Source: a virus (Duplodnaviria; Heunggongvirae; Uroviricota; Caudoviricetes). From it: a DNA stretch of 48,166 bases. The notes beneath the pieces are model-generated. The model did not search any database, was not told the origin of the DNA, and worked only from the letters and a program-made list of their open reading frames with translations. Location of the stretch: the IMG/VR virus record IMGVR_UViG_2639762987_000003. One strand, given 5' to 3'. Positions 1 to 48,166 of this stretch are shown in pieces (within the stretch, counting starts at the first letter, position 1; each line of letters starts with the position of its first letter). Made by a program: the position numbers and the translations under genes.

Positions 1-34
1 TAAAGCACTTTTTATATAAATATATAATTATATA
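1..34. repeat. 34-bp terminal overlap identical to positions 48133-48166 (circular join or terminal redundancy)
   Basis: First 34 nt (taaagcactttttatataaatatataattatata) are identical to the last 34 nt of the window. Confidence 0.9.
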
Positions 35-37
35 ATT

Positions 38-625
38 TTATGCCACTTGCCAGAGAGCATCATGCAACTGGATACCTCCATTGCACTGGTTGCCCCAGCC
101 ATGCCAACCATCAGGTAAATCACCGCGAGAAAACAGCTCAATACGAGGAACATCACCTAACAGCCTTACCAGCTTGTCACGAACCACATCAGGCTTCCGA
201 GAATGCTCCAGACGAGGCGATGTAAACGACTGAATGATCCCCGCATCAAGGCGGGTCGGCAATTTGCCTTTTACCGCAAACAAGCAATCTTCACTGTTTG
301 CACGAGTCATATGCCCCATCCCCATCACCAGCTTATCTGGTTGTCGGCTACCACATTTGTTCCATGTGAAGCCCTTCATGGTCATAAGCCTGAATCCCCA
401 TGCTTTCACCACCAGCAACGCTTCTTCTGGCTGAGTCGGAACCCACCACATGGCCAACAAACACGATTCAGGATTAGCAAGCTGCCAGACAGGAATACGA
501 GCAATATCCTCAGCTTTCATCGTTGGATACTTAAAACCAGCTCCACGATTCCCATCCTTACACTTATCTTTGTATTCCCAGGGGGGATCTGCATAAATCA
601 GATTAAACAATGCAATTGCCTCCAT
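38..625 (-). CDS. DNA N6-adenine methyltransferase, MT-A70-like
   Basis: 195-aa ORF with DPPW motif (LIYADPPWEY) typical of MT-A70/Dam-like phage methyltransferases. Confidence 0.75.
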   Translation of the reverse strand: MEAIALFNLIYADPPWEYKDKCKDGNRGAGFKYPTMKAEDIARIPVWQLANPESCLLAMWWVPTQPEEALLVVKAWGFRLMTMKGFTWNKCGSRQPDKLVMGMGHMTRANSEDCLFAVKGKLPTRLDAGIIQSFTSPRLEHSRKPDVVRDKLVRLLGDVPRIELFSRGDLPDGWHGWGNQCNGGIQLHDALWQVA

Positions 626-933: not shown

Positions 934-1009
934 TGGTGGCCCCTACCGGATTTGAACCGATGACCGTGCGATTATGAGTCGCCTGCTCTAACCACTGAGC
1001 TAAGGGGCC
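934..1009 (-). tRNA. tRNA with CAU anticodon; acceptor, D and anticodon arms resemble E. coli tRNA-Ile2 (ileX-type), elongator tRNA-Met not excluded
   Basis: Reverse complement folds as a 76-nt cloverleaf: 7-bp acceptor stem GGCCCCT/AGGGGCC, D-arm GCTC-AGTGGTTA-GAGC, anticodon loop CTCATAA, T-arm ATCGG-TTCAAAT-CCGGT, terminal CCA encoded. Confidence 0.85.
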
Positions 1010-1150: not shown

Positions 1151-1178
1151 TATATTTATATAATTATAGAAATATATA
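1151..1178. promoter_or_regulatory. AT-rich element containing perfect palindrome TATAATTATA (1159-1168)
   Basis: Member of a dispersed AT-rich motif family; lies between the lysis cassette and the tRNA. Confidence 0.5.
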
Positions 1179-1358
1179 TTACTTGGGGCAGTTGATTTCC
1201 CATGCCCTGTTATGAGCCAGAATATCTTTCTTTGTCTGGCGGTCCATAACATCGATATCGTGATCAGTCAGGTAGATGGGCTTTACCCAATCACAGGCGG
1301 TATCAACCACCACCGGGACGCTTCCACGACTCCCGCAGCTCGCGATCAACATCGTCAT
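1179..1358 (-). CDS. o-spanin (Rz1-like outer-membrane lipoprotein), overlapping the Rz-like gene out of frame
   Basis: Short ORF with lipobox-like LIASC near the N-terminus; overlaps the 3' part of the adjacent ORF in another frame at the end of the lysis cassette. Start chosen at an internal Met of the 1179..1388 track ORF. Confidence 0.5.
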   Translation of the reverse strand: MTMLIASCGSRGSVPVVVDTACDWVKPIYLTDHDIDVMDRQTKKDILAHNRAWEINCPK

Positions 1359-3167: not shown

Positions 3168-3880
3168 TTGTCGCCTCCTTTACGAATCTGTTCCGCCCAC
3201 TCCTCAAGAGATTTCTCCGCATATTCACCGGACAGGCCATCAATCGGGTGCGGTTCATTAGCCAACTCTTCTTTCGCTGACAAAATCATGCGTGTAACGT
3301 CGAAAACTTCACGCAAAGACTTATTGATAAATCCGTGATTGAACGCAGCAGCAAGACGGCTTGCGGTGTAGTTAATCCCCTCGTTGCGTGCCTCCGCACG
3401 TATTTCAGCCAGGAAAGCATCGGTGGCTGGAATGGGCTTTTGTGGTGATATAGCAATGCGAATTGTCTCAAGGTCTGGAGCTGTTTCCGCTGTTGGCACC
3501 TTGATATAACCCGTCTGCACCCCATTCATGATGAACCTGCGACGGTCATCACATATCGCCTTAAGCCCTGCATTCTCCGCCGCCAGCGCCGCACGACTGG
3601 CCTCCAGTTCAGCAATGCGTTTGCTTTGTGCTTCCCGTTCATTCAGCAACGCCTGCACTACTTCTGGGTTGAAAGCTGCGATATAACGAGCGTTGTTCTC
3701 TGCGTTTTTCTGTCCGTCAAAGCCGGTCCATTTGATAACGTCTTCACATCGTTTATCACCGGGTGTATGCACCGCATATGTACCAGTACCCGACGAAATA
3801 AATGCGACCCATTCGCCTTGTGTTGCCTGTTTTGCTATCTCACGTAGTGCCTGATAGTTAATTGCTGTGCTGTTAGTCAT
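3164..3880 (-). CDS. Ea22/Ead-like lambdoid early-region protein
   Basis: Resembles Ead/Ea22-like proteins by eye (segment YAVHTPGDKRCEDVIKWTGFDG...AAFNPEVVQALL); start set at Met with GGAGG 7 nt upstream. Confidence 0.45.
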   Translation of the reverse strand: MTNSTAINYQALREIAKQATQGEWVAFISSGTGTYAVHTPGDKRCEDVIKWTGFDGQKNAENNARYIAAFNPEVVQALLNEREAQSKRIAELEASRAALAAENAGLKAICDDRRRFIMNGVQTGYIKVPTAETAPDLETIRIAISPQKPIPATDAFLAEIRAEARNEGINYTASRLAAAFNHGFINKSLREVFDVTRMILSAKEELANEPHPIDGLSGEYAEKSLEEWAEQIRKGGDK

Positions 3881-5082: not shown

Positions 5083-5381
5083 TCCTCATCTGCAACGGGG
5101 GTGTTCCGCTCCAGCACCTTGTCCGCATCAGCGATCAGGTTTGCCAGACTCTTGTCTGAAATCTTCGTTACCGGAGTCGTTGGTTGCTCAACCTGCCCGA
5201 TAGGTTTTATCGTGCTCAAAAGGAGGCGACGGCGGGAAAGTGGTGCCCCACAACGACGGCCATCTTCCTTGCGATATGTTTCTTTCGGACCAACACACCA
5301 GGTTGTCGGCGTTTCGCGCAACTTCACTCTTTTCTCACCATCATTGGTAATGATTATTCCGGTATGGGTTTTGATGCTCAT
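5016..5381 (-). CDS. Hypothetical protein
   Basis: 121-aa ORF in operon context. Confidence 0.4.
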   Translation of the reverse strand: MSIKTHTGIIITNDGEKRVKLRETPTTWCVGPKETYRKEDGRRCGAPLSRRRLLLSTIKPIGQVEQPTTPVTKISDKSLANLIADADKVLERNTPVADEEWWQDFRAAMLELQERRREELK

Positions 5382-5680
5382 GCCACAGCCCCTCTCAACG
5401 GCTTAACTTTGGCTAATAAGGTGTTAAACAACATGGAGTTAGGATTCATGCCAAATGGCAATTCCGGTTTAGCGGAGTAGTACAGGCAACCATTTATTTT
5501 CCTGGTTGTTATCTGTCCTTCGGCAACCATGCTTCTCAGTCTGCAACGCATAGAGTTCTGCGACACACCAATGTGCTCCGCGATTACGTCCACTTTTGAA
5601 CATGGGTGATCGGTCAGGAAATTAATCACATCTTGGGGGTTAATAATTTTGCGTTTCATTGTCGAGGCGTCCTTATACAT
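5378..5680 (-). CDS. Hypothetical protein, possible small DNA-binding regulator
   Basis: 100-aa ORF directly downstream of an AT-rich motif and a hairpin terminator. Confidence 0.4.
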   Translation of the reverse strand: MYKDASTMKRKIINPQDVINFLTDHPCSKVDVIAEHIGVSQNSMRCRLRSMVAEGQITTRKINGCLYYSAKPELPFGMNPNSMLFNTLLAKVKPLRGAVA

Positions 5681-5704
5681 TTGTATAAATATATAATTCT
5701 ATAT

Positions 5705-5726
5705 ACGGCGGGAGACGTCCCGCCGT
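5705..5726 (-). terminator. Perfect 9-bp GC-rich hairpin (terminator or RNA stability element)
   Basis: acggcggga-gacg-tcccgccgt, 10 nt after the stop of the 5737..6804 gene; no clean U-run, so termination efficiency is uncertain. Confidence 0.45.
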
Positions 5727-6804: not shown

Positions 6805-6912
6805 CAGATTTCTCCGGTTTAACCAGGGCGGGTATCGCTCGGTTTCGGGTATAACCATAGGAAATTTTTTCCCACCTGTAAAGCACTTTTTATATAAATC
6901 TATAATTATATA
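6801..6912 (-). promoter_or_regulatory. Promoter-leader cassette copy A: TATAATTATA palindrome, -35 TTTACA, 17-bp spacer, -10 TATGGT, ~45-nt leader, GGAG, ATG
   Basis: Near-identical to 16776-16877 and 48055-48166; lies about 60 bp downstream of the Q-like gene. Confidence 0.6.
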
Positions 6913-6973
6913 TTTATAGATTTTCGATGTTCCCGATGTCTACACACCATCAAAACAGCTCAAAATGACACTT

Positions 6974-9343: not shown

Positions 9344-9461
9344 ACCACGATACGTGGTATTAAAACCACATATCGTGAGTTTTTCAATGGGCGAAACAAA
9401 AAATAACCTTCTATTTGTGGTCCACCTCTCGTCTTACCATGTGAAAACCACTAAATGTGGT
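9344..9461. promoter_or_regulatory. Operator cluster: ACCAC-N5-GTGGT palindromes at 9344-9358 and 9447-9461, imperfect site at 9365-9379
   Basis: Perfect inverted-repeat half-sites with 5-bp spacer in the divergent promoter region; the 9447 site abuts a TATAAA -10-like element before the repressor start. Confidence 0.65.
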
Positions 9462-10197: not shown

Positions 10198-10212
10198 ACC
10201 ACATTTTGTGGT
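10198..10212. promoter_or_regulatory. ACCAC-N5-GTGGT operator site next to a TTGACA -35-like hexamer
   Basis: accacattttgtggt immediately upstream of TTGACA, before the 10248 gene. Confidence 0.55.
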
Positions 10213-10247: not shown

Positions 10248-10622
10248 ATGGAATTACATACAGCCAATAAAAACGAAACTCTGATCACTGCTGGAATCGA
10301 AATCCAAGCGTTGAACATAGCGATTGAGTGTATGTTATGCCAAATCATTGATAATGAGAAAGATATCGACTGGATAGAATCTATCCTTCATCTGGCATCA
10401 GAACAAAAAGTCTGCCTCAAAACGGCCTTACAATACGATGTGCCAGCGGTATCGAAGCTGTGCCAGCCATTGATGGCATATAACAGGGCTATTATTTCTG
10501 TATGCCTCATGATTCTTGATGAAACCCCCCCTCTTAGCGACCGCTCAGAAGCTGCTCTAACCCTCTCACGTAAACAGCGACAGCTAGCAAATCAACTGAT
10601 ATCAACGATAGCTGACCTCTGA
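10248..10622 (+). CDS. Hypothetical protein
   Basis: 124-aa ORF downstream of the repressor, followed by a terminator. Confidence 0.45.
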   Translation: MELHTANKNETLITAGIEIQALNIAIECMLCQIIDNEKDIDWIESILHLASEQKVCLKTALQYDVPAVSKLCQPLMAYNRAIISVCLMILDETPPLSDRSEAALTLSRKQRQLANQLISTIADL

Positions 10623-10627
10623 CTGCA

Positions 10628-10650
10628 AGCGGGCTAACGCCCGCTTATAT
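10628..10650 (+). terminator. Rho-independent terminator-like hairpin
   Basis: agcgggc-taac-gcccgct followed by a T/A-rich stretch just after the 10248..10622 stop. Confidence 0.5.
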
Positions 10651-10750
10651 GATTATAGATTTATATAATTATATAAAACGCTTTTCATCAGCCAAAAAGT
10701 TGGTTATGCTTACCTCGTTCTATAAATATAGATTTATAGAATTATATAAC
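10651..10750. promoter_or_regulatory. Two AT-rich palindrome elements upstream of parA (perfect TATAATTATA at 10664-10673; variant TAGAATTATA at 10737-10746)
   Basis: Same motif family as at 23-32, 1159-1168, 6901-6910, 11429-11438 and 16866-16875. Confidence 0.55.
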
Positions 10751-10772
10751 CAAACACATGGAGCCTCGACAA

Positions 10773-11426
10773 ATGACTATCTCTGTAGGTATTTTCAACG
10801 GAAAAGGCGGCGTAACCAAATCAACAATTGCCCGTGCTTTAGCAGTTGCTTATGCAAAGGCTGGCTGGAATGTATGCCTGATCGATATGGATGTGCTTAA
10901 CGGAACGGTAACGCGTTGGGTACAACGCAGAATGGCCAACAATATCGAACCAGCAATCGCGGCGCAGCCGTGCGGCACACCATCACAAGTCCAGAAAATC
11001 ATCGAATCAGAAGTATACGACCTGGTTATCGTCGATGGCGGTGCCTACGCATCTGAATCAGTACCGAAGCTATCTGAATTTCTGGATATGGTTATTTTGC
11101 CAACCCGATTCTCTACCGATGACCTGGAAACCACCGTTAACACTGCTCACGGCATCGTTAAAAAGGGTGTACCAATCAAGAAAATTTGCATGGTGTTTTC
11201 CGGCGCGGCTGAAAACGAAGCTGACTATATTGAAGCCCAAGAGTACCTGGCTAATACGCCATACTTTGTTGTCGATAAGTACATTCCCCACAAGCCAGCT
11301 CTGAGCAAAGCTCAGGATAAGGGCTTAAGCCTCATTGAGTGCTCATACGTTGCGCCACGCAAAAAGGCAGACGACGTTATTCAGGGGATTATCAACCAGC
11401 TTGAGGCTCTGACTACTGCCGCATAA
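10773..11426 (+). CDS. parA: ParA-family partition ATPase (small type Ib)
   Basis: Deviant Walker A motif GKGGVTKST near the N-terminus; start set at the ATG 9 nt after GGAG. Confidence 0.8.
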   Translation: MTISVGIFNGKGGVTKSTIARALAVAYAKAGWNVCLIDMDVLNGTVTRWVQRRMANNIEPAIAAQPCGTPSQVQKIIESEVYDLVIVDGGAYASESVPKLSEFLDMVILPTRFSTDDLETTVNTAHGIVKKGVPIKKICMVFSGAAENEADYIEAQEYLANTPYFVVDKYIPHKPALSKAQDKGLSLIECSYVAPRKKADDVIQGIINQLEALTTAA

Positions 11427-11457
11427 TATATAATTATAGTTTTATAGATTTATATAA
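11421..11457. promoter_or_regulatory. AT-rich palindrome element (TATAATTATA at 11429-11438) between parA and the small downstream gene
   Basis: Motif family member followed by tatagatttatata. Confidence 0.5.
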
Positions 11458-11469
11458 GAGGGGATACAC

Positions 11470-11718
11470 ATGGCCGCACCATCAAAACCACCAAAGAAGA
11501 ACAGCAAAGGCGTACCGCCATCGATCGAACAACCGCAGGTTTTCGACCCGACTGAAACGCCAACCAGAACCAAATCAGGTGGGGCACAAATGGCGTTTAA
11601 CGTCGACCCTGAATTTAAACGCGAGTACAAAACGTTCGCCAGCTCAATGGATATGTCATTGAAAGAAGTGCTGACAAAGTCTTTTGAGTTACTCAAGGCT
11701 CAATACAACCAGAAGTAA
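11470..11718 (+). CDS. Small ParG-like (putative ribbon-helix-helix) partition partner
   Basis: 82-aa protein with a Pro/Lys-rich flexible N-terminus, directly after parA; fold assignment is inferred from size and position. Confidence 0.45.
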   Translation: MAAPSKPPKKNSKGVPPSIEQPQVFDPTETPTRTKSGGAQMAFNVDPEFKREYKTFASSMDMSLKEVLTKSFELLKAQYNQK

Positions 11719-11969: not shown

Positions 11970-12092
11970 CTACTTGCTGCTAATGTTTATCGTCACATTC
12001 AGAGCGTTATCAGTAATCTTCCAACCCTCCCCATGTGGCGTAAACAAAGCCCCAGTAACAACGATAAAAATACACATACAGTATTTTTTCAT
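11970..12092 (-). CDS. Candidate 40-aa hydrophobic peptide (possible type I toxin or small secreted peptide)
   Basis: MKKYCMCIFIVVTGALFTPHGEGWKITDNALNVTINISSK; AAGGG 8-12 nt upstream of the ATG; own terminator downstream. Confidence 0.35.
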   Translation of the reverse strand: MKKYCMCIFIVVTGALFTPHGEGWKITDNALNVTINISSK

Positions 12093-13040: not shown

Positions 13041-14179
13041 AAACGCTTCCGACCGTTAACACCCTACAGCCTATCCTGCATAACCAGATCCCCGTTATCA
13101 CTAGTGAACTTCTGGCGCAGTTATACGGAACAAAAATCAAAAACATTTCTGATAACTTTCTGAACAACACGACGCGATTCGTAGCCGGAAAGCATTACTT
13201 TAAAATTGAAAAAAACGAATTACGCGAGTTCAAGAACAGACCCGAAACAATCGGGTTAGTTGGTAAAAATGCCCGCTCCCTAATTCTCTGGACCGAACGC
13301 GGGGCTGCACGTCACGCTAAAATGCTCGAAACCGATCAGGCGTGGGATGTATTCGAACGGCTGGAAGACTGCTACTTCAACCAGAACGCGCAAACGGCCG
13401 CGACCGTAACCGTCTCGCCAAACAATGCTCGTGAGGTTGTCGATACGCTCAACGCCAAACCGATGTTTTACATTAAGGTGTGCAATAACGAGCCACTCAC
13501 AACCTCAGCCGATGTTGCCCAAGCATTCAGCACCACAAACAATTCCATCGTTATGGCCATCGATGCGTTACGCATTCCTCGCACAGCTGCGGCGCGTCAT
13601 TTCTTTAAAGAGCAACGACCGTTGGAAGGAAGCGACCGCGAAATAACAATCTATCGCATGACAAAAGACGGATTTACCTTGCTCATGGAGAGTATCGACG
13701 GTCCAGGCGTGAAAGATATCAAGCTGGCCTACATTGAAGCCTTTAACGCTATCAGCAGCGTGTTAAAAACACAGTACGAGCGTGATCTGGCTAAACGACT
13801 GTACCAGGAAAAAACGATTATCCGCGCGGCAACAGAGCATAATCGGCTATTAACGGAACCGAACTACAGGAAGGAACTAATAAAGGAGTTTGACAAGGCA
13901 ACAGGGAAAACCAAAGCGGCGCTAAATCTGCCAGCAATGACTCAGGAAAATGTGATATCAGCCTTACTTCTTGATCTGCTCAGAAACGCCAGAGCACTTA
14001 TCAGCTTTGACGAAAATCTGAACCCTCAGCTCAAACTACTACCACCGACAGGCAAAGTAGTCGACCAAGCTGATCACAACAGCATACTCAGCGTACTGGA
14101 TGCAAACCTGCCAGCCAGGACACTACAGGAACTGATAAAAATATCTGCGGATAAACTGGCCGCAGGTGCAAAACCATAA
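13037..14179 (+). CDS. Antirepressor (Ant-like)
   Basis: 380-aa protein whose N-terminal region resembles antirepressor N-terminal domains (ITSELLAQLYGTK...RFVAGKHYFKI...LWTERGAARHAKML). Confidence 0.7.
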   Translation: MKTLPTVNTLQPILHNQIPVITSELLAQLYGTKIKNISDNFLNNTTRFVAGKHYFKIEKNELREFKNRPETIGLVGKNARSLILWTERGAARHAKMLETDQAWDVFERLEDCYFNQNAQTAATVTVSPNNAREVVDTLNAKPMFYIKVCNNEPLTTSADVAQAFSTTNNSIVMAIDALRIPRTAAARHFFKEQRPLEGSDREITIYRMTKDGFTLLMESIDGPGVKDIKLAYIEAFNAISSVLKTQYERDLAKRLYQEKTIIRAATEHNRLLTEPNYRKELIKEFDKATGKTKAALNLPAMTQENVISALLLDLLRNARALISFDENLNPQLKLLPPTGKVVDQADHNSILSVLDANLPARTLQELIKISADKLAAGAKP

Positions 14180-16775: not shown

Positions 16776-16877
16776 TCTCCGGTTTAACCAGGGCGGGTAT
16801 CGCTCGGTTTCGGGTATAACCATAGGAAATTTTTTCCCACCTGTAAAGCACTTTTTATATAAATCTATAATTATATA
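16776..16877 (-). promoter_or_regulatory. Promoter-leader cassette copy B (identical to copy A over 102 bp)
   Basis: Same -35 TTTACA / -10 TATGGT / leader / GGAG as copy A; contains TATAATTATA at 16866-16875. Confidence 0.6.
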
Positions 16878-16889
16878 ATTCTATGAGCA

Positions 16890-18409: not shown

Positions 18410-18779
18410 TTATTATATCTACGATGGTAGGAAATCTTTTCCTATGTGGCAATAGAAATTTACTACATTGCGTATAAGACAAGTTTTCTATGTCTAATAG
18501 GAAATGATGTTTCTTACGTTTTATCGCGTTCTGATGGCTACTGTGTGCGTATTTCTCGACGTTTATTGATAAGGCTCGCCCCTTCCTCCTGCAAAGCCCG
18601 GCCGTAGGCCTTATTTCGGCCTTATATAAATTGATTTTGTATAGTTCGAAACGCGCCGTTTCGAAAAGGATGATCAGGCTGCTCCATGCCTCCGGCAAGT
18701 GCCGGAGGAGGTATATTTGAGCGTAGCGACTCGAACCGGCGCGAGCTTTAGCTCGCTGCAAGGGCGAACATATTCACAG

Positions 18780-20054: not shown

Positions 20055-20069
20055 ACCACGTTACGTGGT
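20055..20069. promoter_or_regulatory. ACCAC-N5-GTGGT operator site upstream of the repA leader
   Basis: accacgttacgtggt; same palindrome family as the repressor operators. Confidence 0.55.
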
Positions 20070-27604: not shown

Positions 27605-28606
27605 TTAATACCCATTAATTACTCTTCGGACATCAATCGAGGTGGTATAACCACTAGTCCCAATTGAATGCACAGCTTTCGATATAAGATATTTTCCAGA
27701 AAATGAACCGAATCCCTCCAGATTTATAGTTACACCAGCTACCAATCTGGTGTCTCCAACCAATACTAAAGATCCGGTATTTTGATATCTATTTTTAAGC
27801 CGCAAAGCAGCCTTTGCCTTACGTTTTGCTTCATCTAAATTAGCTACCAGTTTTCTTATCTTAAGATTCGACCCTTCTTCTACGGATGGATCTACCCAAG
27901 TATACGAAAGCGACTTTCTTTTTTTAGGTACGCGATATTTGCACGTGCAACTTTTATACAAATCTGTAGATTGTGTGCTAAAGCTATATCTGATTATCTC
28001 ATCAATACCTAACGTAAGCGTAGCGATAGGATCTTTTTGCTCAAACATCTCTTGAGCAAATATTATTAATTGGCTATCAGTGACCTTTAACGACAACCCT
28101 TCATCCTGGCAAAGTCGATGGAGAAATTTTAAATCGCTTTCCTCCATTTGATCTTCACGTGCATAATATGGATTACTATCACCATCAATAAGAAACAACA
28201 GTTCAAGGTTAGCTAATTTAGCTATAGAAGTTGCTATATCTTTAAGAGTTGTTTTTTCCCATGCATTACTTTTTAAATCACGTCTAATGCCTGATGAAAT
28301 AGGAACAGAAACAGCAGTTACCTCAACCACAGAAGGTGGTCCAGAGCAAGTTATGCCATCTACCTGGAATTTCCCGCACTCAAGGACGATTTGATTTATA
28401 GGCTTAAAGCTCAAATCAATAAAATCACCCTTTTTAGGTGTCCAGTCTCCAGACCATTTCCCATCATCATTTTTTAATATAATAGAAATATCATCGACCT
28501 GACCATCTTCATTATCTGTATAAGACATTGACAAAACATCAGGTGACATATGAGCGGTAATATTTACATTCTGATATATAACATCAAAAAGCGTTTTACG
28601 TAACAC
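27605..28606 (-). CDS. Tail protein, P2 gpD-like
   Basis: 333-aa protein immediately after the tape measure and X-like genes. Confidence 0.55.
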   Translation of the reverse strand: MLRKTLFDVIYQNVNITAHMSPDVLSMSYTDNEDGQVDDISIILKNDDGKWSGDWTPKKGDFIDLSFKPINQIVLECGKFQVDGITCSGPPSVVEVTAVSVPISSGIRRDLKSNAWEKTTLKDIATSIAKLANLELLFLIDGDSNPYYAREDQMEESDLKFLHRLCQDEGLSLKVTDSQLIIFAQEMFEQKDPIATLTLGIDEIIRYSFSTQSTDLYKSCTCKYRVPKKRKSLSYTWVDPSVEEGSNLKIRKLVANLDEAKRKAKAALRLKNRYQNTGSLVLVGDTRLVAGVTINLEGFGSFSGKYLISKAVHSIGTSGYTTSIDVRRVINGY

Positions 28607-41753: not shown

Positions 41754-42305
41754 TTATTCTTCCTGCTTAATAAATCGGGATTCCTGGAGCGCCTGAAGCG
41801 CAAAATTAATCTCGTCTTCAATAATGCGTTCGATCTCCCTGGCTGTTTTGCCTTCACAACGGGGAGCTGCTCTTGGAGCAATACTAAATAAGCGGCTACG
41901 CAATTCATTAGCTGCCAGAAATGCATCATCCCTGACCGCATCTTTAGCGATGAGAGAGCCTTCCTTTTCTTCAAATTCAAGGCGTTTCAGCTTTGCCTGA
42001 TAAATTTTTTCTGCGGTCTTAGCCTTGTTGAATTGCACCGCAACACCGGAAGTACCACCAGCTAATCCGGCATCATCAGCGGGTAACTCTGGTTGTTCCG
42101 AAGATATCCCATGCCCTCTTTTTCCATTTTCAGCAGATACCCCACGACCAACCTGTCGGCTCGCTTCATAAGCCGCACTGGCTTTATCAAAATCCAGCTT
42201 GCCGCTTTTCAGCACTGGAATGCGACCGGAACGACAGAGCTTCGTAACCATTGCCGGAGAAATACCTTTCCGGCGGGCAAACTCTGACTTACTGACGATG
42301 GCCAT
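41754..42305 (-). CDS. Terminase small subunit, Nu1-like (N-terminal HTH)
   Basis: N-terminal HTH-like segment (SKSEFARRKGISPAMVTKLCRSGRIP); start overlaps the upstream stop (TAATG). Confidence 0.6.
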   Translation of the reverse strand: MAIVSKSEFARRKGISPAMVTKLCRSGRIPVLKSGKLDFDKASAAYEASRQVGRGVSAENGKRGHGISSEQPELPADDAGLAGGTSGVAVQFNKAKTAEKIYQAKLKRLEFEEKEGSLIAKDAVRDDAFLAANELRSRLFSIAPRAAPRCEGKTAREIERIIEDEINFALQALQESRFIKQEE

Positions 42306-42895
42306 TACTTGCAACCATTAGCAAGATACTGAACAAATCCCTCATGCGTTTCATGCGCGTCGTGGTACTGACGATAAACATCCAGCAACAATGCAATTTC
42401 CATATCCGTCGCGGGAATACGTTCTTTATCAATAGCCAGGTACTTAATTTGAACAACAGGGGAAGAATTATCGTCTTCTTCCTGCGGCTGTTCATCGCTT
42501 AACATTTCGTCAAGCTCTGCATCATTAAACCCAAGCAGATCAATATCAAAATCATCATCCATTAACTCTTTGACTTCTTCGGCCAGAAGCTGCATATCCC
42601 AGCCAGCATTTAAGGCCAGCTTGTTATCTGCAATCCTGTACGCCTTCTTCTGTTTTTCAGAAAGGTTACTCAACCGAATCGCCGGAACTTTATCCATTTC
42701 CAGAATTTCGGCTGCTGCAAGCCGCCCATGCCCCGCAATCAGTTCATTCTTTTCATCGATCAGCACAGGATTAGTGAAACCGAACTCACGGATACTGTTC
42801 ACCAACTGTTCAACTTGCTCATCTGAATGAGTCCGTGAATTTTTGGCATATCTGAGCAGCTTACCGACTGGTAAATATTCGATTTTTAGAGCCAT
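42305..42895 (-). CDS. ParB N-terminal (nuclease-like) domain protein
   Basis: 196-aa protein; paralogous by eye to 45562..46185 (shared GHGR and KKAYR(I/L)ADN...LNAGWD segments). Confidence 0.65.
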   Translation of the reverse strand: MALKIEYLPVGKLLRYAKNSRTHSDEQVEQLVNSIREFGFTNPVLIDEKNELIAGHGRLAAAEILEMDKVPAIRLSNLSEKQKKAYRIADNKLALNAGWDMQLLAEEVKELMDDDFDIDLLGFNDAELDEMLSDEQPQEEDDNSSPVVQIKYLAIDKERIPATDMEIALLLDVYRQYHDAHETHEGFVQYLANGCK

Positions 42896-43452
42896 TTTTT
42901 AACCGCCATAACACAACAGGTTAAAGAAAAATGTTTAACTTATTGATACTAAAAGAGAAAAATGACGATCTTTTTACTCATAAAAAATCACACAAACCAG
43001 CATAATTATCTGGTTTTATTAAGTTTTTATAAGTAAAAAGGATCTTCCGATGGTGTTTTGGTTAAAAGATTGGATGTATTTGCATGATTTATAAAGATTT
43101 TTATCAAAACAGCCTTGCATTGGTTAAAGATCTGCGCGTATCTTGATGATCTAAAAGAAAATTCTCTACTTTCTTTTCACCATCACAAGCACAGCAAAAA
43201 ATCACGTTTTCCCAATATTTTTCAATGAGATGGGTAAATTTCTTTTACCGCAACTTTTAACCTAACTTTTTTCACGTTTAGCTAGCCGAACATCGGGGTT
43301 CGAATGACCCGCATCCAACGCTTTTGGCCAGAAGGACCCAATTCTGCCGGACGATGAAACGATGCTCGTGCCCACCCACAGACAGCCAGCGAGCGACGCT
43401 ACAGAACACAGTGAATACACTCTGCATAACAACACCATCAACCACACGATGA
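42896..43452. other. Long intergenic region upstream of the packaging genes; candidate packaging or regulatory site
   Basis: About 555 bp without convincing ORF; AT-rich half contains four GATC sites (about 42969, 43041, 43128, 43152). Confidence 0.3.
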
Positions 43453-44172
43453 TTAACGAGAGAAAGTCTTAGAAAGAATGTCATCAATAGCCTTTGTGAC
43501 TTCATCAGCAAACGCATCCTCACCAGCACGCAGCGCCACGCCATGCCAATCAAGACGCTGCGAATAGTTAGGTTGCTGGATAAACGTAAGGATCAACGTA
43601 GGACGCCGCCCAACGCGCTGCCAGACGCCTGGTTGAAGCGGGTTACTTGTACCAGGTCGAACAACAAAAAACTCCGTAGGCTTGCCCTGACGGCGATTTT
43701 GATGCGCATCTCGCTGAACTCTTAGGCCAGATAAGACCTGCTGTAATTGCCCCCGCGAAATATTCCCGTATTTGTCCAGCTTTGCACCGGGACCAGGAGC
43801 AAGCTGCCAGCCGTTAGGCAAATATCCACCAGCCCTTAGCGCCCCTTCTGAGCGTTTGTACTGTCGTTGTCCACCTTCGATTTGCGGAGTCAACGTTACA
43901 GGGGCTGGCGTTCCTCCCCATTCACGAGCATACACAATGGCTGTAGGATCACTCTTCTTTGCGGCCAAAACGTAAGTAGAGTTCTGAATCCACGGCGTGG
44001 GCCTGTCAAATACCCGATTAATTTCATTCTTAATCGCAGCCTGAGAAGCCTTTGCCGTTCTGGTTGCCGCAAGCGCCATTGCGAACGGCAATTCGCGTTC
44101 TTCAAGGCGCTGGAGTTGTCGTTGAATATCCTGAGAAGAAAAATCCATCTTTATCTCAATTCTGTCAGCCAC
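43453..44172 (-). CDS. Hypothetical protein
   Basis: 239-aa ORF between the methyltransferase fusion and the intergenic region. Confidence 0.45.
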   Translation of the reverse strand: MADRIEIKMDFSSQDIQRQLQRLEERELPFAMALAATRTAKASQAAIKNEINRVFDRPTPWIQNSTYVLAAKKSDPTAIVYAREWGGTPAPVTLTPQIEGGQRQYKRSEGALRAGGYLPNGWQLAPGPGAKLDKYGNISRGQLQQVLSGLRVQRDAHQNRRQGKPTEFFVVRPGTSNPLQPGVWQRVGRRPTLILTFIQQPNYSQRLDWHGVALRAGEDAFADEVTKAIDDILSKTFSR

Positions 44173-44188
44173 CAGCGCCTCCTACACA

Positions 44189-45568
44189 CTACTTAATCAA
44201 CGGCCGGAAAGCCGCCAGCACATCATCAGATCGTCCGATTGTTGAACCACCAGGCAACGGCAACTCAAACTCAAAACGAACAGCTTTCTCCAGACTCGCC
44301 CAACTAAGGGAATCATCGTTAATGACGTGCAAATACCAGCTCTTACAGTTGAATATTGACCGCTTAATCCTGAAACCATGTACACGACACAACTGCTTCA
44401 CTTCATCATCAGAGTGAAACTTCTGGTAAAACCAGTGCCCCTTCCGGTACAACGCGGTAAAACCGTTATGATCAATAAAATAAAGCCGGCTTTTGGAACT
44501 CGCCGCTTGTGTTTGTTTCAGGACGGTTTCCAGCTCTCCACGGCTACGGCCAGAAAAGAATATTGACCCACCAGCTTTACACAAGCCTTTCAGAACCGTC
44601 AGAACGGACCATTCAGCCTCGACACTATCGACCGAGTTCAAAACGCTATCGCAAATCACGTAGTCGTAACGCCCTCGCGTTTTTAAGTCGTCCACCAGCG
44701 TATCAATCATCCGGTTTGTTGCGGTCCTATCCAGAGTGTTTCCAGCGCCCTTACGGCGGAAAAGCTCGAGATCATGCAGGTTATATCCCTTTGCCCTGAG
44801 CATTCGCGCGTAGTCTCCCTGCCCCGAACCAAAATCAATTCCTCTTGGCGTCTTGGCAATGATCGGGAGGATCAACGACTCATACAGGTTTGATTTCAGG
44901 CTGCCACCATTACGCAACCGCATAAGCTGCGCATACGTCTGGATGTATGTTGTTTTCTCCAGATGAGAATACTCAAATACACCATAAGTTTTATTCAGAT
45001 AACTTTGGTATTTTTCCTTCTCAACATCAGGGATCACAAACACCGTTAGCGGTGTGCGCGTCATCTTCGCTGCTAATGCATACTGAGCACAGTGAATAAC
45101 CTCGCCAGACTGAGTAGCAACACAACCACCCCACGGACCATACTTGATAACCAGTTCCGCTATGTTCTTTCGAACATATGCCATTTTCGCGCGCATATTG
45201 CCTGAGATCTGGCTTGCCGATACCTGAACAAAACCATGCTTATCTTCCAGACCGGACACCCTGCAACGCTCATCTCCGCTATCAAAATCCGTTCCGTTAT
45301 GCAGTTGGTTAAACCGTACTTCGTCGTATACCGTCGTTTCACAGGGCAACACATACACCGCAGCACGCGTTATTCCCAACTTACGTAGCGCCTTCGTCCT
45401 TTGGTGTCCCGCCACCAGCAAATCGCCGCGCACTATCAATGGCTTCACAAGCCCCAGCTCCCTGACGCTTTCCGCCAGCCTCGCAAGATCATCCTCACCG
45501 ATAAAACGCGGGTTATATTCCGCGCCGCGTAGGTGCGTTATGTCGTAATTGAGGTGAAGCATCAGCAC
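44189..45568 (-). CDS. ParB-like N-terminal domain fused to class I SAM-dependent methyltransferase
   Basis: N-terminal ParB-like segment (LVAGHQR) and methyltransferase motif I (IDFGSGQGDYARML). Confidence 0.65.
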   Translation of the reverse strand: MLMLHLNYDITHLRGAEYNPRFIGEDDLARLAESVRELGLVKPLIVRGDLLVAGHQRTKALRKLGITRAAVYVLPCETTVYDEVRFNQLHNGTDFDSGDERCRVSGLEDKHGFVQVSASQISGNMRAKMAYVRKNIAELVIKYGPWGGCVATQSGEVIHCAQYALAAKMTRTPLTVFVIPDVEKEKYQSYLNKTYGVFEYSHLEKTTYIQTYAQLMRLRNGGSLKSNLYESLILPIIAKTPRGIDFGSGQGDYARMLRAKGYNLHDLELFRRKGAGNTLDRTATNRMIDTLVDDLKTRGRYDYVICDSVLNSVDSVEAEWSVLTVLKGLCKAGGSIFFSGRSRGELETVLKQTQAASSKSRLYFIDHNGFTALYRKGHWFYQKFHSDDEVKQLCRVHGFRIKRSIFNCKSWYLHVINDDSLSWASLEKAVRFEFELPLPGGSTIGRSDDVLAAFRPLIK

Positions 45569-46185
45569 ACCTCCCCAGCCAGCAATGCGGATACAAATCC
45601 GATATAGCTGCCATTATCATCAACATAACGAGACACCGCGCAGTCAAAACGATCCGCTTCCTCATCCGTTGCCGGGATTTTATGACCTCCAAATGACAGG
45701 TACTGAACTTTTACGCCTGATTTGGCCTCATCCTTCTCAAATGGGATATCCATACCCTCTGTGTCATCGTAGACCGCCGCACTCAATAAGTTATCCAGTT
45801 CGCGCTGAGTAAAACCAATTGAGTCCAGAGCAAAATCATCGGCCGCAAGATCTGCAAGCTCCGCGCTTAACAACTCTTCATCCCAACCAGCATTCAGCGG
45901 AATACGGTTGTCGGCCAGACGATATGCCTTCTTCTGATTCTCCGTTAGCCCTTCCAGAACAATGCAGGGAACCTCATCCATCCCCAACTGAGTGGCCGCA
46001 GCAATTCGACCATGACCAGCAATTACAACGTTGTTCTCGTCTATCAGGATCGGATTAGTCCATCCGTACTCCTGTATGCTGGCAACAATCTGATCTACCT
46101 GCTCCACGGAGTGTGTGCGAGCGTTCTTTTCATAACCAATCAACACAGAAAGTGGTAAAGAAACCACATTAAGATGTTTTGTCAT
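45562..46185 (-). CDS. ParB N-terminal (nuclease-like) domain protein, paralogue of 42305..42895
   Basis: 207-aa protein with the same conserved segments as 42305..42895. Confidence 0.65.
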   Translation of the reverse strand: MTKHLNVVSLPLSVLIGYEKNARTHSVEQVDQIVASIQEYGWTNPILIDENNVVIAGHGRIAAATQLGMDEVPCIVLEGLTENQKKAYRLADNRIPLNAGWDEELLSAELADLAADDFALDSIGFTQRELDNLLSAAVYDDTEGMDIPFEKDEAKSGVKVQYLSFGGHKIPATDEEADRFDCAVSRYVDDNGSYIGFVSALLAGEVC

Positions 46186-48058: not shown

Positions 48059-48166
48059 CAGATTTCTCCGGTTTAACCAGGGCGGGTATCGCTCGGTTTC
48101 GGGTATAACCATAGGAAATTTTTTCCCACCTGTAAAGCACTTTTTATATAAATATATAATTATATA
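48055..48166 (-). promoter_or_regulatory. Promoter-leader cassette copy C (continues across the circular join into positions 1-34)
   Basis: Same -35 TTTACA (48136-48131) / -10 TATGGT (48113-48108) / leader / GGAG as copies A and B; one mismatch in the AT-rich end; TATAATTATA at 48155-48164. Confidence 0.6.

Follow-up and report, generated by a model that had tools for sequence, protein, structure and literature searches.

The DNA analyzed here, a stretch of 48,166 nucleotides referred to as the window, is as judged from its sequence a circular E. coli phage-plasmid of ~48.1 kb. Bases 1-34 are identical to bases 48133-48166 over all 34 positions, which marks an assembly overlap, so that the true circle measures 48,132 bp. 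The window shares >99% identity with ~48-kb E. coli plasmids (NZ_CP040921, NZ_CP020497 and the ATCC 25922 plasmid) and ~97% identity with the Yersinia phages vB_YpM_39, 41 and 44. There are 62 to 65 records of this ~48-kb type in the plasmid collection, with kin in Salmonella, Klebsiella and Yersinia phages. Membership of the pSLy3 phage-plasmid group was considered and dropped, as the literature places pSLy3 in the SSU5 supergroup. A literature search returned no paper on partition or regulation in this phage-plasmid family, and the motif described below and the Yersinia phage names retrieved nothing relevant.

Phage functions are represented by P2-like contractile-tail and head genes and by lysis genes, and maintenance functions by repA, a RelE/HTH toxin-antitoxin pair, a cI-like HTH+S24 repressor gene, and parA with a small gene downstream (Table 1). 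A 124-aa protein without a detectable domain is encoded between the cI-like gene and parA. Its gene always occupies this place in the phage-plasmid relatives; the protein is 60% identical in Salmonella, and similar-sized genes lie at the same position in a viral contig (L015) and a Serratia plasmid (L019). The tRNA-Met gene makes the overlapping 99-aa ORF 836-1135 probably spurious. Upstream of the terminase genes the minus strand encodes an MT-A70 DNA methyltransferase and three ParB/Srx-domain proteins (38-625 and 42305-46185). These genes lie downstream of the third promoter cassette and are unrelated to the ParA partner; one of the three ParB/Srx-domain genes is annotated as methyltransferase-fused in Salmonella.

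ParA matched the Pfam families CbiA, ParA and MipZ, and its copies in relatives are annotated as ParA family. Residues 5-206 align to positions 2-200 of the 203-position NF041546 ParA_partition profile, with a score of 78.6 bits that is below the curated cut-off of 180. The 82-aa protein encoded just downstream has a basic N-terminal tail (residues 1-40) followed by the ribbon QMAFNV and two helices. In the AlphaFold2 prediction residues 1-46 are without secondary structure and helices span residues 47-59 and 64-80; a model built from a deeper alignment gave pLDDT >90 for residues 41-80. In a Foldseek comparison of the predicted structure with the PDB, about 40 of the top 50 matches were ribbon-helix-helix (RHH) proteins, including CdbA, StnY, AmrZ, CopG, ParD, Arc and MatP (TM 0.65-0.87, rmsd 1-2 Å, E = 0.6-5).

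The 82-aa sequence by itself matched nothing in PDB, Pfam or NCBIfam. A word-indexed homologue search found close relatives only, and an exhaustive search reached the wider family. Pfam RHH_10 was matched by 17 of the 48 family members, and the family profile aligned in register with ParG (1p94) at E = 0.58. Pfam ParG was not matched by the window protein, which at this profile E value lies outside the ParG sequence family, and Omega_Repress was matched neither by the window protein nor by any of the 48 family members. These scores are individually weak and jointly concordant, and the protein is predicted to have an RHH fold of the ParG/omega type. By analogy it would work like ParG without being a ParG sequence member. 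The layout is typical of a type Ib partition system, with a small ParA, a small RHH-type protein encoded directly downstream, and repeat arrays at the par promoter.

Eight intergenic arrays of four 8-bp units

The preliminary description of this DNA reported a perfect 10-bp palindrome, TATAATTATA, at six loci, together with two near-variants. All coordinates were correct: exact copies start at 23, 1159, 6901, 10664, 11429, 16866 and 48155, the first and last being a single site on the circle, and the variants TATAATTCTA and TAGAATTATA are present at 5692 and 10737. The enrichment check against shuffled sequence that had been proposed was run. The seven exact matches compare with 0.09 expected from dinucleotide shuffles, none of 100 shuffles reached seven, and 20 matches were found against 2.05 expected when up to one mismatch was allowed. 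AT-richness, which had been suspected of inflating the expected frequency, is not the cause of the excess since the GC content of the window is ~45% (range 38-50%).

The copies of the palindrome are real, but the element is larger than a lone 10-bp palindrome. Every locus consists of four contiguous 8-bp units, 32 bp in all, each unit combining a TATA, TAGA or TATG box with four mostly A/T bases. TATA-N4-TATA is present 28 times in the window, where a Markov-3 model predicts 1.2, and every one of these matches falls inside the same eight loci; 8/8 loci are intergenic. As a control each 150-bp segment of the window was used as a k-mer query, for which only clusters with at least 12 hits were used because a low threshold was noisy; several strong matches elsewhere were obtained only with segments that overlap an array or a cassette.

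Table 1. Positions of the arrays, promoters and genes discussed in the text (window coordinates)
Feature	Position	Strand	Description
Array, cassette 3	15..46, across join; 48147-48166 same DNA		Units TATAAATA TATAATTA TATAATTT TATGCCAC
tRNA-Met	934-1009	-	Anticodon CAT; between lysis genes and MT-A70 methyltransferase
Array, tRNA-Met	1151..1182		Upstream on minus strand; units TATATTTA TATAATTA TAGAAATA TATATTAC
Array, gene 5680-5378	5676..5707		Units TACATTTG TATAAATA TATAATTC TATATACG
Promoter cassette 1	6811..6882	-	TTTACA-17-TATGGT; drives DUF3560 gene (6804-5737)
Array, cassette 1	6893..6924		Upstream of cassette; units TATAAATC TATAATTA TATATTTA TAGATTTT
124-aa gene	10248-10622	+	Between cI-like gene and parA
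Array U-par	10646..10677		Units TATATGAT TATAGATT TATATAAT TATATAAA
Inferred parA promoter	10682..10710	+	TTTTCA-17-TATGCT, read from sequence; below scan threshold
Array D-par	10721..10752		Units TATAAATA TAGATTTA TAGAATTA TATAACCA
parA	10773..11426	+	217-aa Walker-type partition ATPase, without N-terminal DNA-binding domain (type Ib)
Array, parA/RHH gap	11427..11458		Units TATATAAT TATAGTTT TATAGATT TATATAAG
Candidate centromere-binding protein gene	11470..11718	+	82 aa; basic tail and ribbon-helix-helix (RHH)
Promoter cassette 2	16776..16847	-	Identical to cassette 1; drives 126-aa gene 16768-16388
Array, cassette 2	16858..16889		Upstream of cassette; units TATAAATC TATAATTA TATAATTC TATGAGCA
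Promoter cassette 3	48065..48136	-	Identical to cassettes 1 and 2; drives gene 48058-47789
ACCAC-N5-GTGGT copies	9344-9358, 9447-9461, 10198-10212, 20055-20069, 28326-28340; 1-mismatch 12536, 23102, 46142		

The association of the sites with parA, the promoter cassettes and a tRNA, also noted in the preliminary description, was borne out: two arrays lie upstream of parA and one between parA and its small partner, the cassettes are minus-strand TTTACA-17-TATGGT promoters, and the tRNA is the tRNA-Met of Table 1. Five arrays abut -35 hexamers or precede transcription units. The other three, each running up to a Shine-Dalgarno sequence, lie in leaders (10721-10752, 11427-11458 and 5676-5707). A terminator hairpin immediately precedes several of the arrays. 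The U-par array follows the hairpin 10628-10647 directly, and 4 bp separate it from the inferred parA -35 downstream of it, a placement conserved in Salmonella. The D-par array is part of the 5' leader, downstream of the promoter and ahead of the Shine-Dalgarno sequence of parA, and the array in the parA/RHH gap fills the stretch from the parA stop codon to the Shine-Dalgarno sequence of the RHH gene. The array at gene 5680-5378 is located between the hairpin 5706-5723 and the Shine-Dalgarno/ATG of that gene (minus strand), and the array of cassette 2 is just downstream of a minus-strand terminator at 16917-16895.

The three cassettes are of the sigma-70 type and identical over ~110 bp, the identity reaching past the promoter. 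Their leader of 43 nt ends in GGAGA, 6-7 nt before the ATG, and is conserved even in Serratia and L015. The arrays of the cassettes are located 6 bp upstream of the -35. The leftward block driven by cassette 3 runs into the ParB/Srx, terminase and structural genes. The inferred parA promoter has the geometry of the cassette promoters and similar hexamers, and the distance from array to -35 is about the same at parA and at the cassettes. Its Salmonella equivalent is TTCCAA-17-TATCAT in the same place. Another candidate, TTGGTT/15-bp spacer/TATAAA, was rejected because it is not conserved in Salmonella, while TTTTCA-17-TATGCT fits the cassette geometry.

Two further features of these leaders were observed. 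The spacer between -35 and -10 of the cassettes carries an inverted repeat, GGAAA-N3-TTTCC, which reads AGGAAA-ATA-TTTCCT in Salmonella and AGGAAAAAAAGTCCT in Serratia; a fourth copy occurs at 18430. Together with the conserved leader it points to a second operator or to structure in the leader RNA. In addition, parA and gene 5680-5378 have a cctcgacaATG translation-initiation region in common. The longer string GGA.C.TCGACAATG precedes parA (10760-10775) and the first gene of the 5680-3164 block (5677-5692, minus strand), and it recurs in the relatives L019 (27713-27727) and L015 (about 3255-3270). An array is found just before each copy, an arrangement conserved in distant relatives, and it appears that the leader module and its array were duplicated jointly.

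Conservation and co-variation in relatives

The par locus of Salmonella relatives is ~80% identical to that of the window. These relatives have exactly eight TATA-N4-TATA loci in the same syntenic places, with unit order and spacers changed. Divergence in the par leader affects the core promoter between the arrays, whereas arrays, terminator and translation start have been retained. The parA/RHH gap is array-occupied in Salmonella as well as in the conjugative plasmid L022 described below. Syntenic arrays are also found at the tRNA-Met gene in Salmonella, and at gene 5680-5378 in Salmonella, L015 and Serratia.

More distant relatives keep the layout of the arrays at the par promoter with other boxes. 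In L015, with identities to the window of 46% for the RHH protein, 52% for ParA and 32% for cI, the order of cI, small gene, terminator, array, promoter, array, parA and RHH gene is as in the window, and all arrays consist of AATCTTTA units with a CTTTA box. Such CTTTA arrays also precede the gene homologous to 5680, as well as homologous cassettes in which the leader ...AACCGGAGA is shared. In the Serratia plasmid L019 (NZ_CP074139) this maintenance module is combined with lambda-like structural genes, and the RHH protein is 40% identical to that of the window. Here the par promoter has units of TTTAAATA or TATTTAAATA, and so do the regions in front of three homologous cassettes and of a cctcgacaATG leader. 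Two other relatives, L017 and L018, show the same array behavior with units of their own.

Arrays were further found in a conjugative cfr plasmid of 28.5 kb, NZ_CP037908 (L022). This plasmid has neither a cI/S24 homologue nor a homologue of the 124-aa gene. Its ParA is 45% identical to that of the window, and its member of the RHH family is 77 aa long (hhalign probability 98.9%). TATA-type arrays precede parA, separate it from the RHH gene, and recur within the type IV secretion cluster, where TATAATTATATTTTTATAG arrays at 11994-12014 and 13756-13794 fill two intergenic gaps, that of virB10/virB9 and the next one. A cassette fragment with an array adjoins IS26 at 1465-1496. The arrays among the type IV secretion genes suggest that the same RHH family may also touch conjugation genes; these two arrays lie inside an operon, and a function as extra centromere or roadblock sites fits as well as one as operators.

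The box type follows the start of the ribbon. TATA-box proteins (window, Salmonella and L022) begin the ribbon with A-Q, even though the RHH protein of L022 is just 36% identical to that of the window, whereas proteins of the CTTTA and TTTAAATA types begin it with K-L, K-P, K-A or R-P, although that of L015 is 46% identical to the window protein. Among the few lineages compared this correlation of box type with ribbon-start residues rather than with overall identity is suggestive. The co-variation of the boxes is with the maintenance module as a whole, which in phage-plasmids also carries the cI-like and 124-aa genes, and one replicon, L022, separates the RHH gene from these two. In L022 the arrays go with ParA-RHH and not with the repressor, which supports the same assignment for the family. 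Across all array-bearing replicons, ParA and the RHH protein are the only proteins in common.

A candidate reader of the arrays

We consider it likely that the 82-aa RHH protein encoded just downstream of parA binds the eight arrays, whose units would be its iterated sites. The main support is comparative. A joint change of the boxes at the par promoter and at non-homologous dispersed sites points to a trans-acting reader encoded in the module that changes along with them. The arrays are read as RHH iterons because only ParA and the RHH protein are common to the replicons, because the 8-bp register is that of ParG and MetJ, and because the four-unit length agrees with the four-repeat minimum of omega. 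The preliminary description had likened the sites around parA and its small partner to centromere repeats. That comparison gains from the present data: the small partner is of the RHH class, ParG/omega type, the arrays bracket the par promoter, and the boxes co-vary with the par/RHH module in relatives.

Under this proposal one RHH dimer would occupy each TATA/TAGA box and read it through the beta-ribbon. The 4-bp A/T spacers would give a centre-to-centre spacing of 8 bp, and four dimers would coat the 32-bp array cooperatively, in the manner of ParG on its ACTC boxes. The three par arrays together would form the centromere and an autoregulatory operator, while ParA would be contacted and stimulated by the protein's basic N-terminal tail, which is conserved (KPPKK..KG.PP). 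Through the remaining five arrays the RHH protein would reach the three identical cassettes, the tRNA-Met gene and gene 5378-5680, which would make the partition protein a plasmid-wide regulator of phage operons as well; the dispersed arrays may also add centromere valency. By analogy with ParG, omega and KorB the protein would most likely act as a repressor or damper. The upstream arrays, at ~-44 to -75, are located where activator sites or UP elements are more usual than repressor sites, and would suit activation too. The shared array-to--35 distance, and an adjacency that is kept where the repressors are ~30% identical, favor a regulatory role over tolerated placement.

The proposed arrangement is closest in its parts to ParF/ParG of TP228. 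ParG recognizes tetramer boxes with regular 4-bp AT-rich spacers, one dimer per box, and the TP228 sites serve both as centromere (parH) and as operator (OF) (PMC3130281). Both modules encode a small Walker ParA followed by a protein of ~80 aa with a flexible N-terminal tail and an RHH domain, and both have 4-bp boxes with 4-bp AT-rich spacers in an 8-bp register, in arrays by or over the par promoter. They differ in that the boxes are ACTC in TP228 and TATA/TAGA in the window, that TP228 has 8 + 12 units in one region whereas the window has four per array at eight loci, and that the window element is a phage-plasmid. ParG has no significant sequence similarity to the window protein, as the profile E value given above indicates.

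The omega/delta system of pSM19035 shares other properties. Omega has six parS arrays overlapping three promoters, and at least four contiguous repeats are needed to activate ParA (PMC9499535). As in the window, separate short tandem-repeat arrays are found at the promoters of different operons. Omega couples partition with other plasmid functions, as the window protein would, and its functional unit of at least four repeats compares with the four units of the window arrays. On the other hand, omega sites on this Firmicute plasmid are 7-bp WATCACW heptads in runs of 7-10, unlike the 8-bp TATA units found here in fours, and the omega regulon comprises copy control, partition and toxin-antitoxin genes whereas the candidate targets in the window are phage cassettes, a tRNA and early genes. 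No sequence homology between omega and the window protein was detected. The shortness of the four-unit arrays relative to parH (12 boxes) or omega parS (7-10 heptads) counts against RHH binding.

The Sop system of the phage-plasmid N15 reportedly also influences late gene expression, a result ascribed to Ravin, Rech and Lane (J Bacteriol, 2008). N15 has four natural inverted-repeat centromere sites scattered through its genome (PMC7205306). The window resembles it as a phage-plasmid whose partition sites would be scattered and not clustered. However, N15 is of type Ia with a large helix-turn-helix SopB and 16-bp palindromes, whereas the window is of type Ib with an 82-aa RHH protein and has tandem 8-bp units abutting promoters instead of isolated palindromes. 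For MetJ, RHH dimers bind cooperatively to 2-5 tandem 8-bp met boxes. The tandem 8-bp units are alike, but MetJ, a chromosomal repressor of metabolism that works with a corepressor, plays no part in partition and recognizes an unrelated box.

An alternative is that the arrays bind another factor, either an element-encoded regulator (the 124-aa protein or one so far unrecognised) or a host nucleoid protein with a preference for TpA-rich DNA (H-NS, Fis or IHF), that silences or bends DNA at phage promoters, with the RHH protein using some of the sites or none. The 124-aa gene, always beside parA in the phage-plasmids and without a known domain, would be a candidate, and every box variant is A/T-rich, as host nucleoid proteins favor. 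Against this, L022 has TATA arrays, ParA and the RHH protein without a homologue of either the 124-aa or the cI protein, and the 8-bp tandem register is a documented mode of an RHH partition protein (PMC3130281). Lineage-specific boxes in a strict 8-bp register would be unexpected for proteins common to E. coli, Salmonella and Serratia, and a generic DNA-bending protein, which the preliminary description had suggested, leaves these boxes unexplained in hosts with the same nucleoid proteins. The cI-like repressor, for its part, probably has operators of its own. We therefore regard a different reader as unlikely.

The cI-like repressor was rejected as the array binder on the same grounds: its region carries a different palindrome, and L022 lacks cI. 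This second dispersed palindrome, ACCAC-N5-GTGGT, has 8 matches including 1-mismatch copies, against 0.59 expected. Copies are located in the divergent region by the cI-like gene, in the gap separating that gene from the 124-aa gene, and a short distance upstream of repA. The palindrome probably represents the operators of the cI-like repressor, in which case repA would be under immunity control. RepA iterons were rejected as well, as there is no array near repA.

It is still less probable, and in our view quite improbable, that the arrays are cis-acting promoter elements without a dedicated protein, either a TATAAT -10 on one or the other strand or a UP-like A/T tract. Each half of the motif does contain TATAAT, a promoter scan finds TTGGCT-16-TATAAT (10695-10668, minus strand) and GTGGCA-16-TATATT (46-19), and five arrays are at UP-element positions adjoining an A-tract (TATAAAAAGTGC-TTTACA). 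However, these were the 2 motif copies paired in the scan, and most arrays have no -35 partner at 16-18 bp. Three arrays are in 5' leaders directly before a Shine-Dalgarno sequence, and the syntenic boxes of relatives are CTTTA or TTTAAATA whereas the host sigma-70 consensus is unchanged. A joint change at par and dispersed sites, moreover, requires a trans-acting reader. The bidirectional -10 elements of the preliminary description can be set aside for related reasons: at five loci the arrays are upstream of a -35, and the CTTTA/TTTAAATA boxes of relatives are not -10-like.

That the repeat is a functionless by-product of cassette duplication or gene conversion, or low-complexity chance, is hardly credible: three sites do lie in cassettes identical over ~110 bp, and cassette fragments also occur beside IS26 in other plasmids, but the arrays at 1151, 5676, 10646, 10721 and 11427 have the same unit and four-unit length without the cassette promoter-leader, positions are conserved at ~80% identity with turnover of units, and the enrichment is far above that in shuffles.

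As a set, the arrays are well-supported cis-elements, and the concept of a partition protein with dispersed sites was anticipated by omega, KorB and SopB of N15. Binding of the RHH protein to them would supply a function for an unnamed 82-aa gene family and for eight intergenic elements per genome. The natural series of matched proteins and operators (TATA, CTTTA and TTTAAATA) could help in the study of RHH specificity or serve as a source of orthogonal repressors. If the partition protein sets the activity of the cassettes, this would be a concrete and testable link between plasmid maintenance and the lysis-lysogeny programme in a phage-plasmid type that is frequent among clinical and animal E. 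coli.

More tentatively, and at somewhat under even confidence, we propose that an uncharacterised RHH partition family functions alongside the cI-like repressor as another master regulator in an enterobacterial phage-plasmid supergroup and some conjugative plasmids, with operator arrays that co-evolve with the ribbon residues. The arrays would then stand at a fixed distance upstream of a duplicated cassette that heads early, accessory and late-proximal operons, and the choice between TATA boxes and CTTTA or TTTAAATA boxes would be set by a simple recognition code, an A-Q or a K-x ribbon. If this is true, a single protein would connect partition, copy state and the lytic programme.
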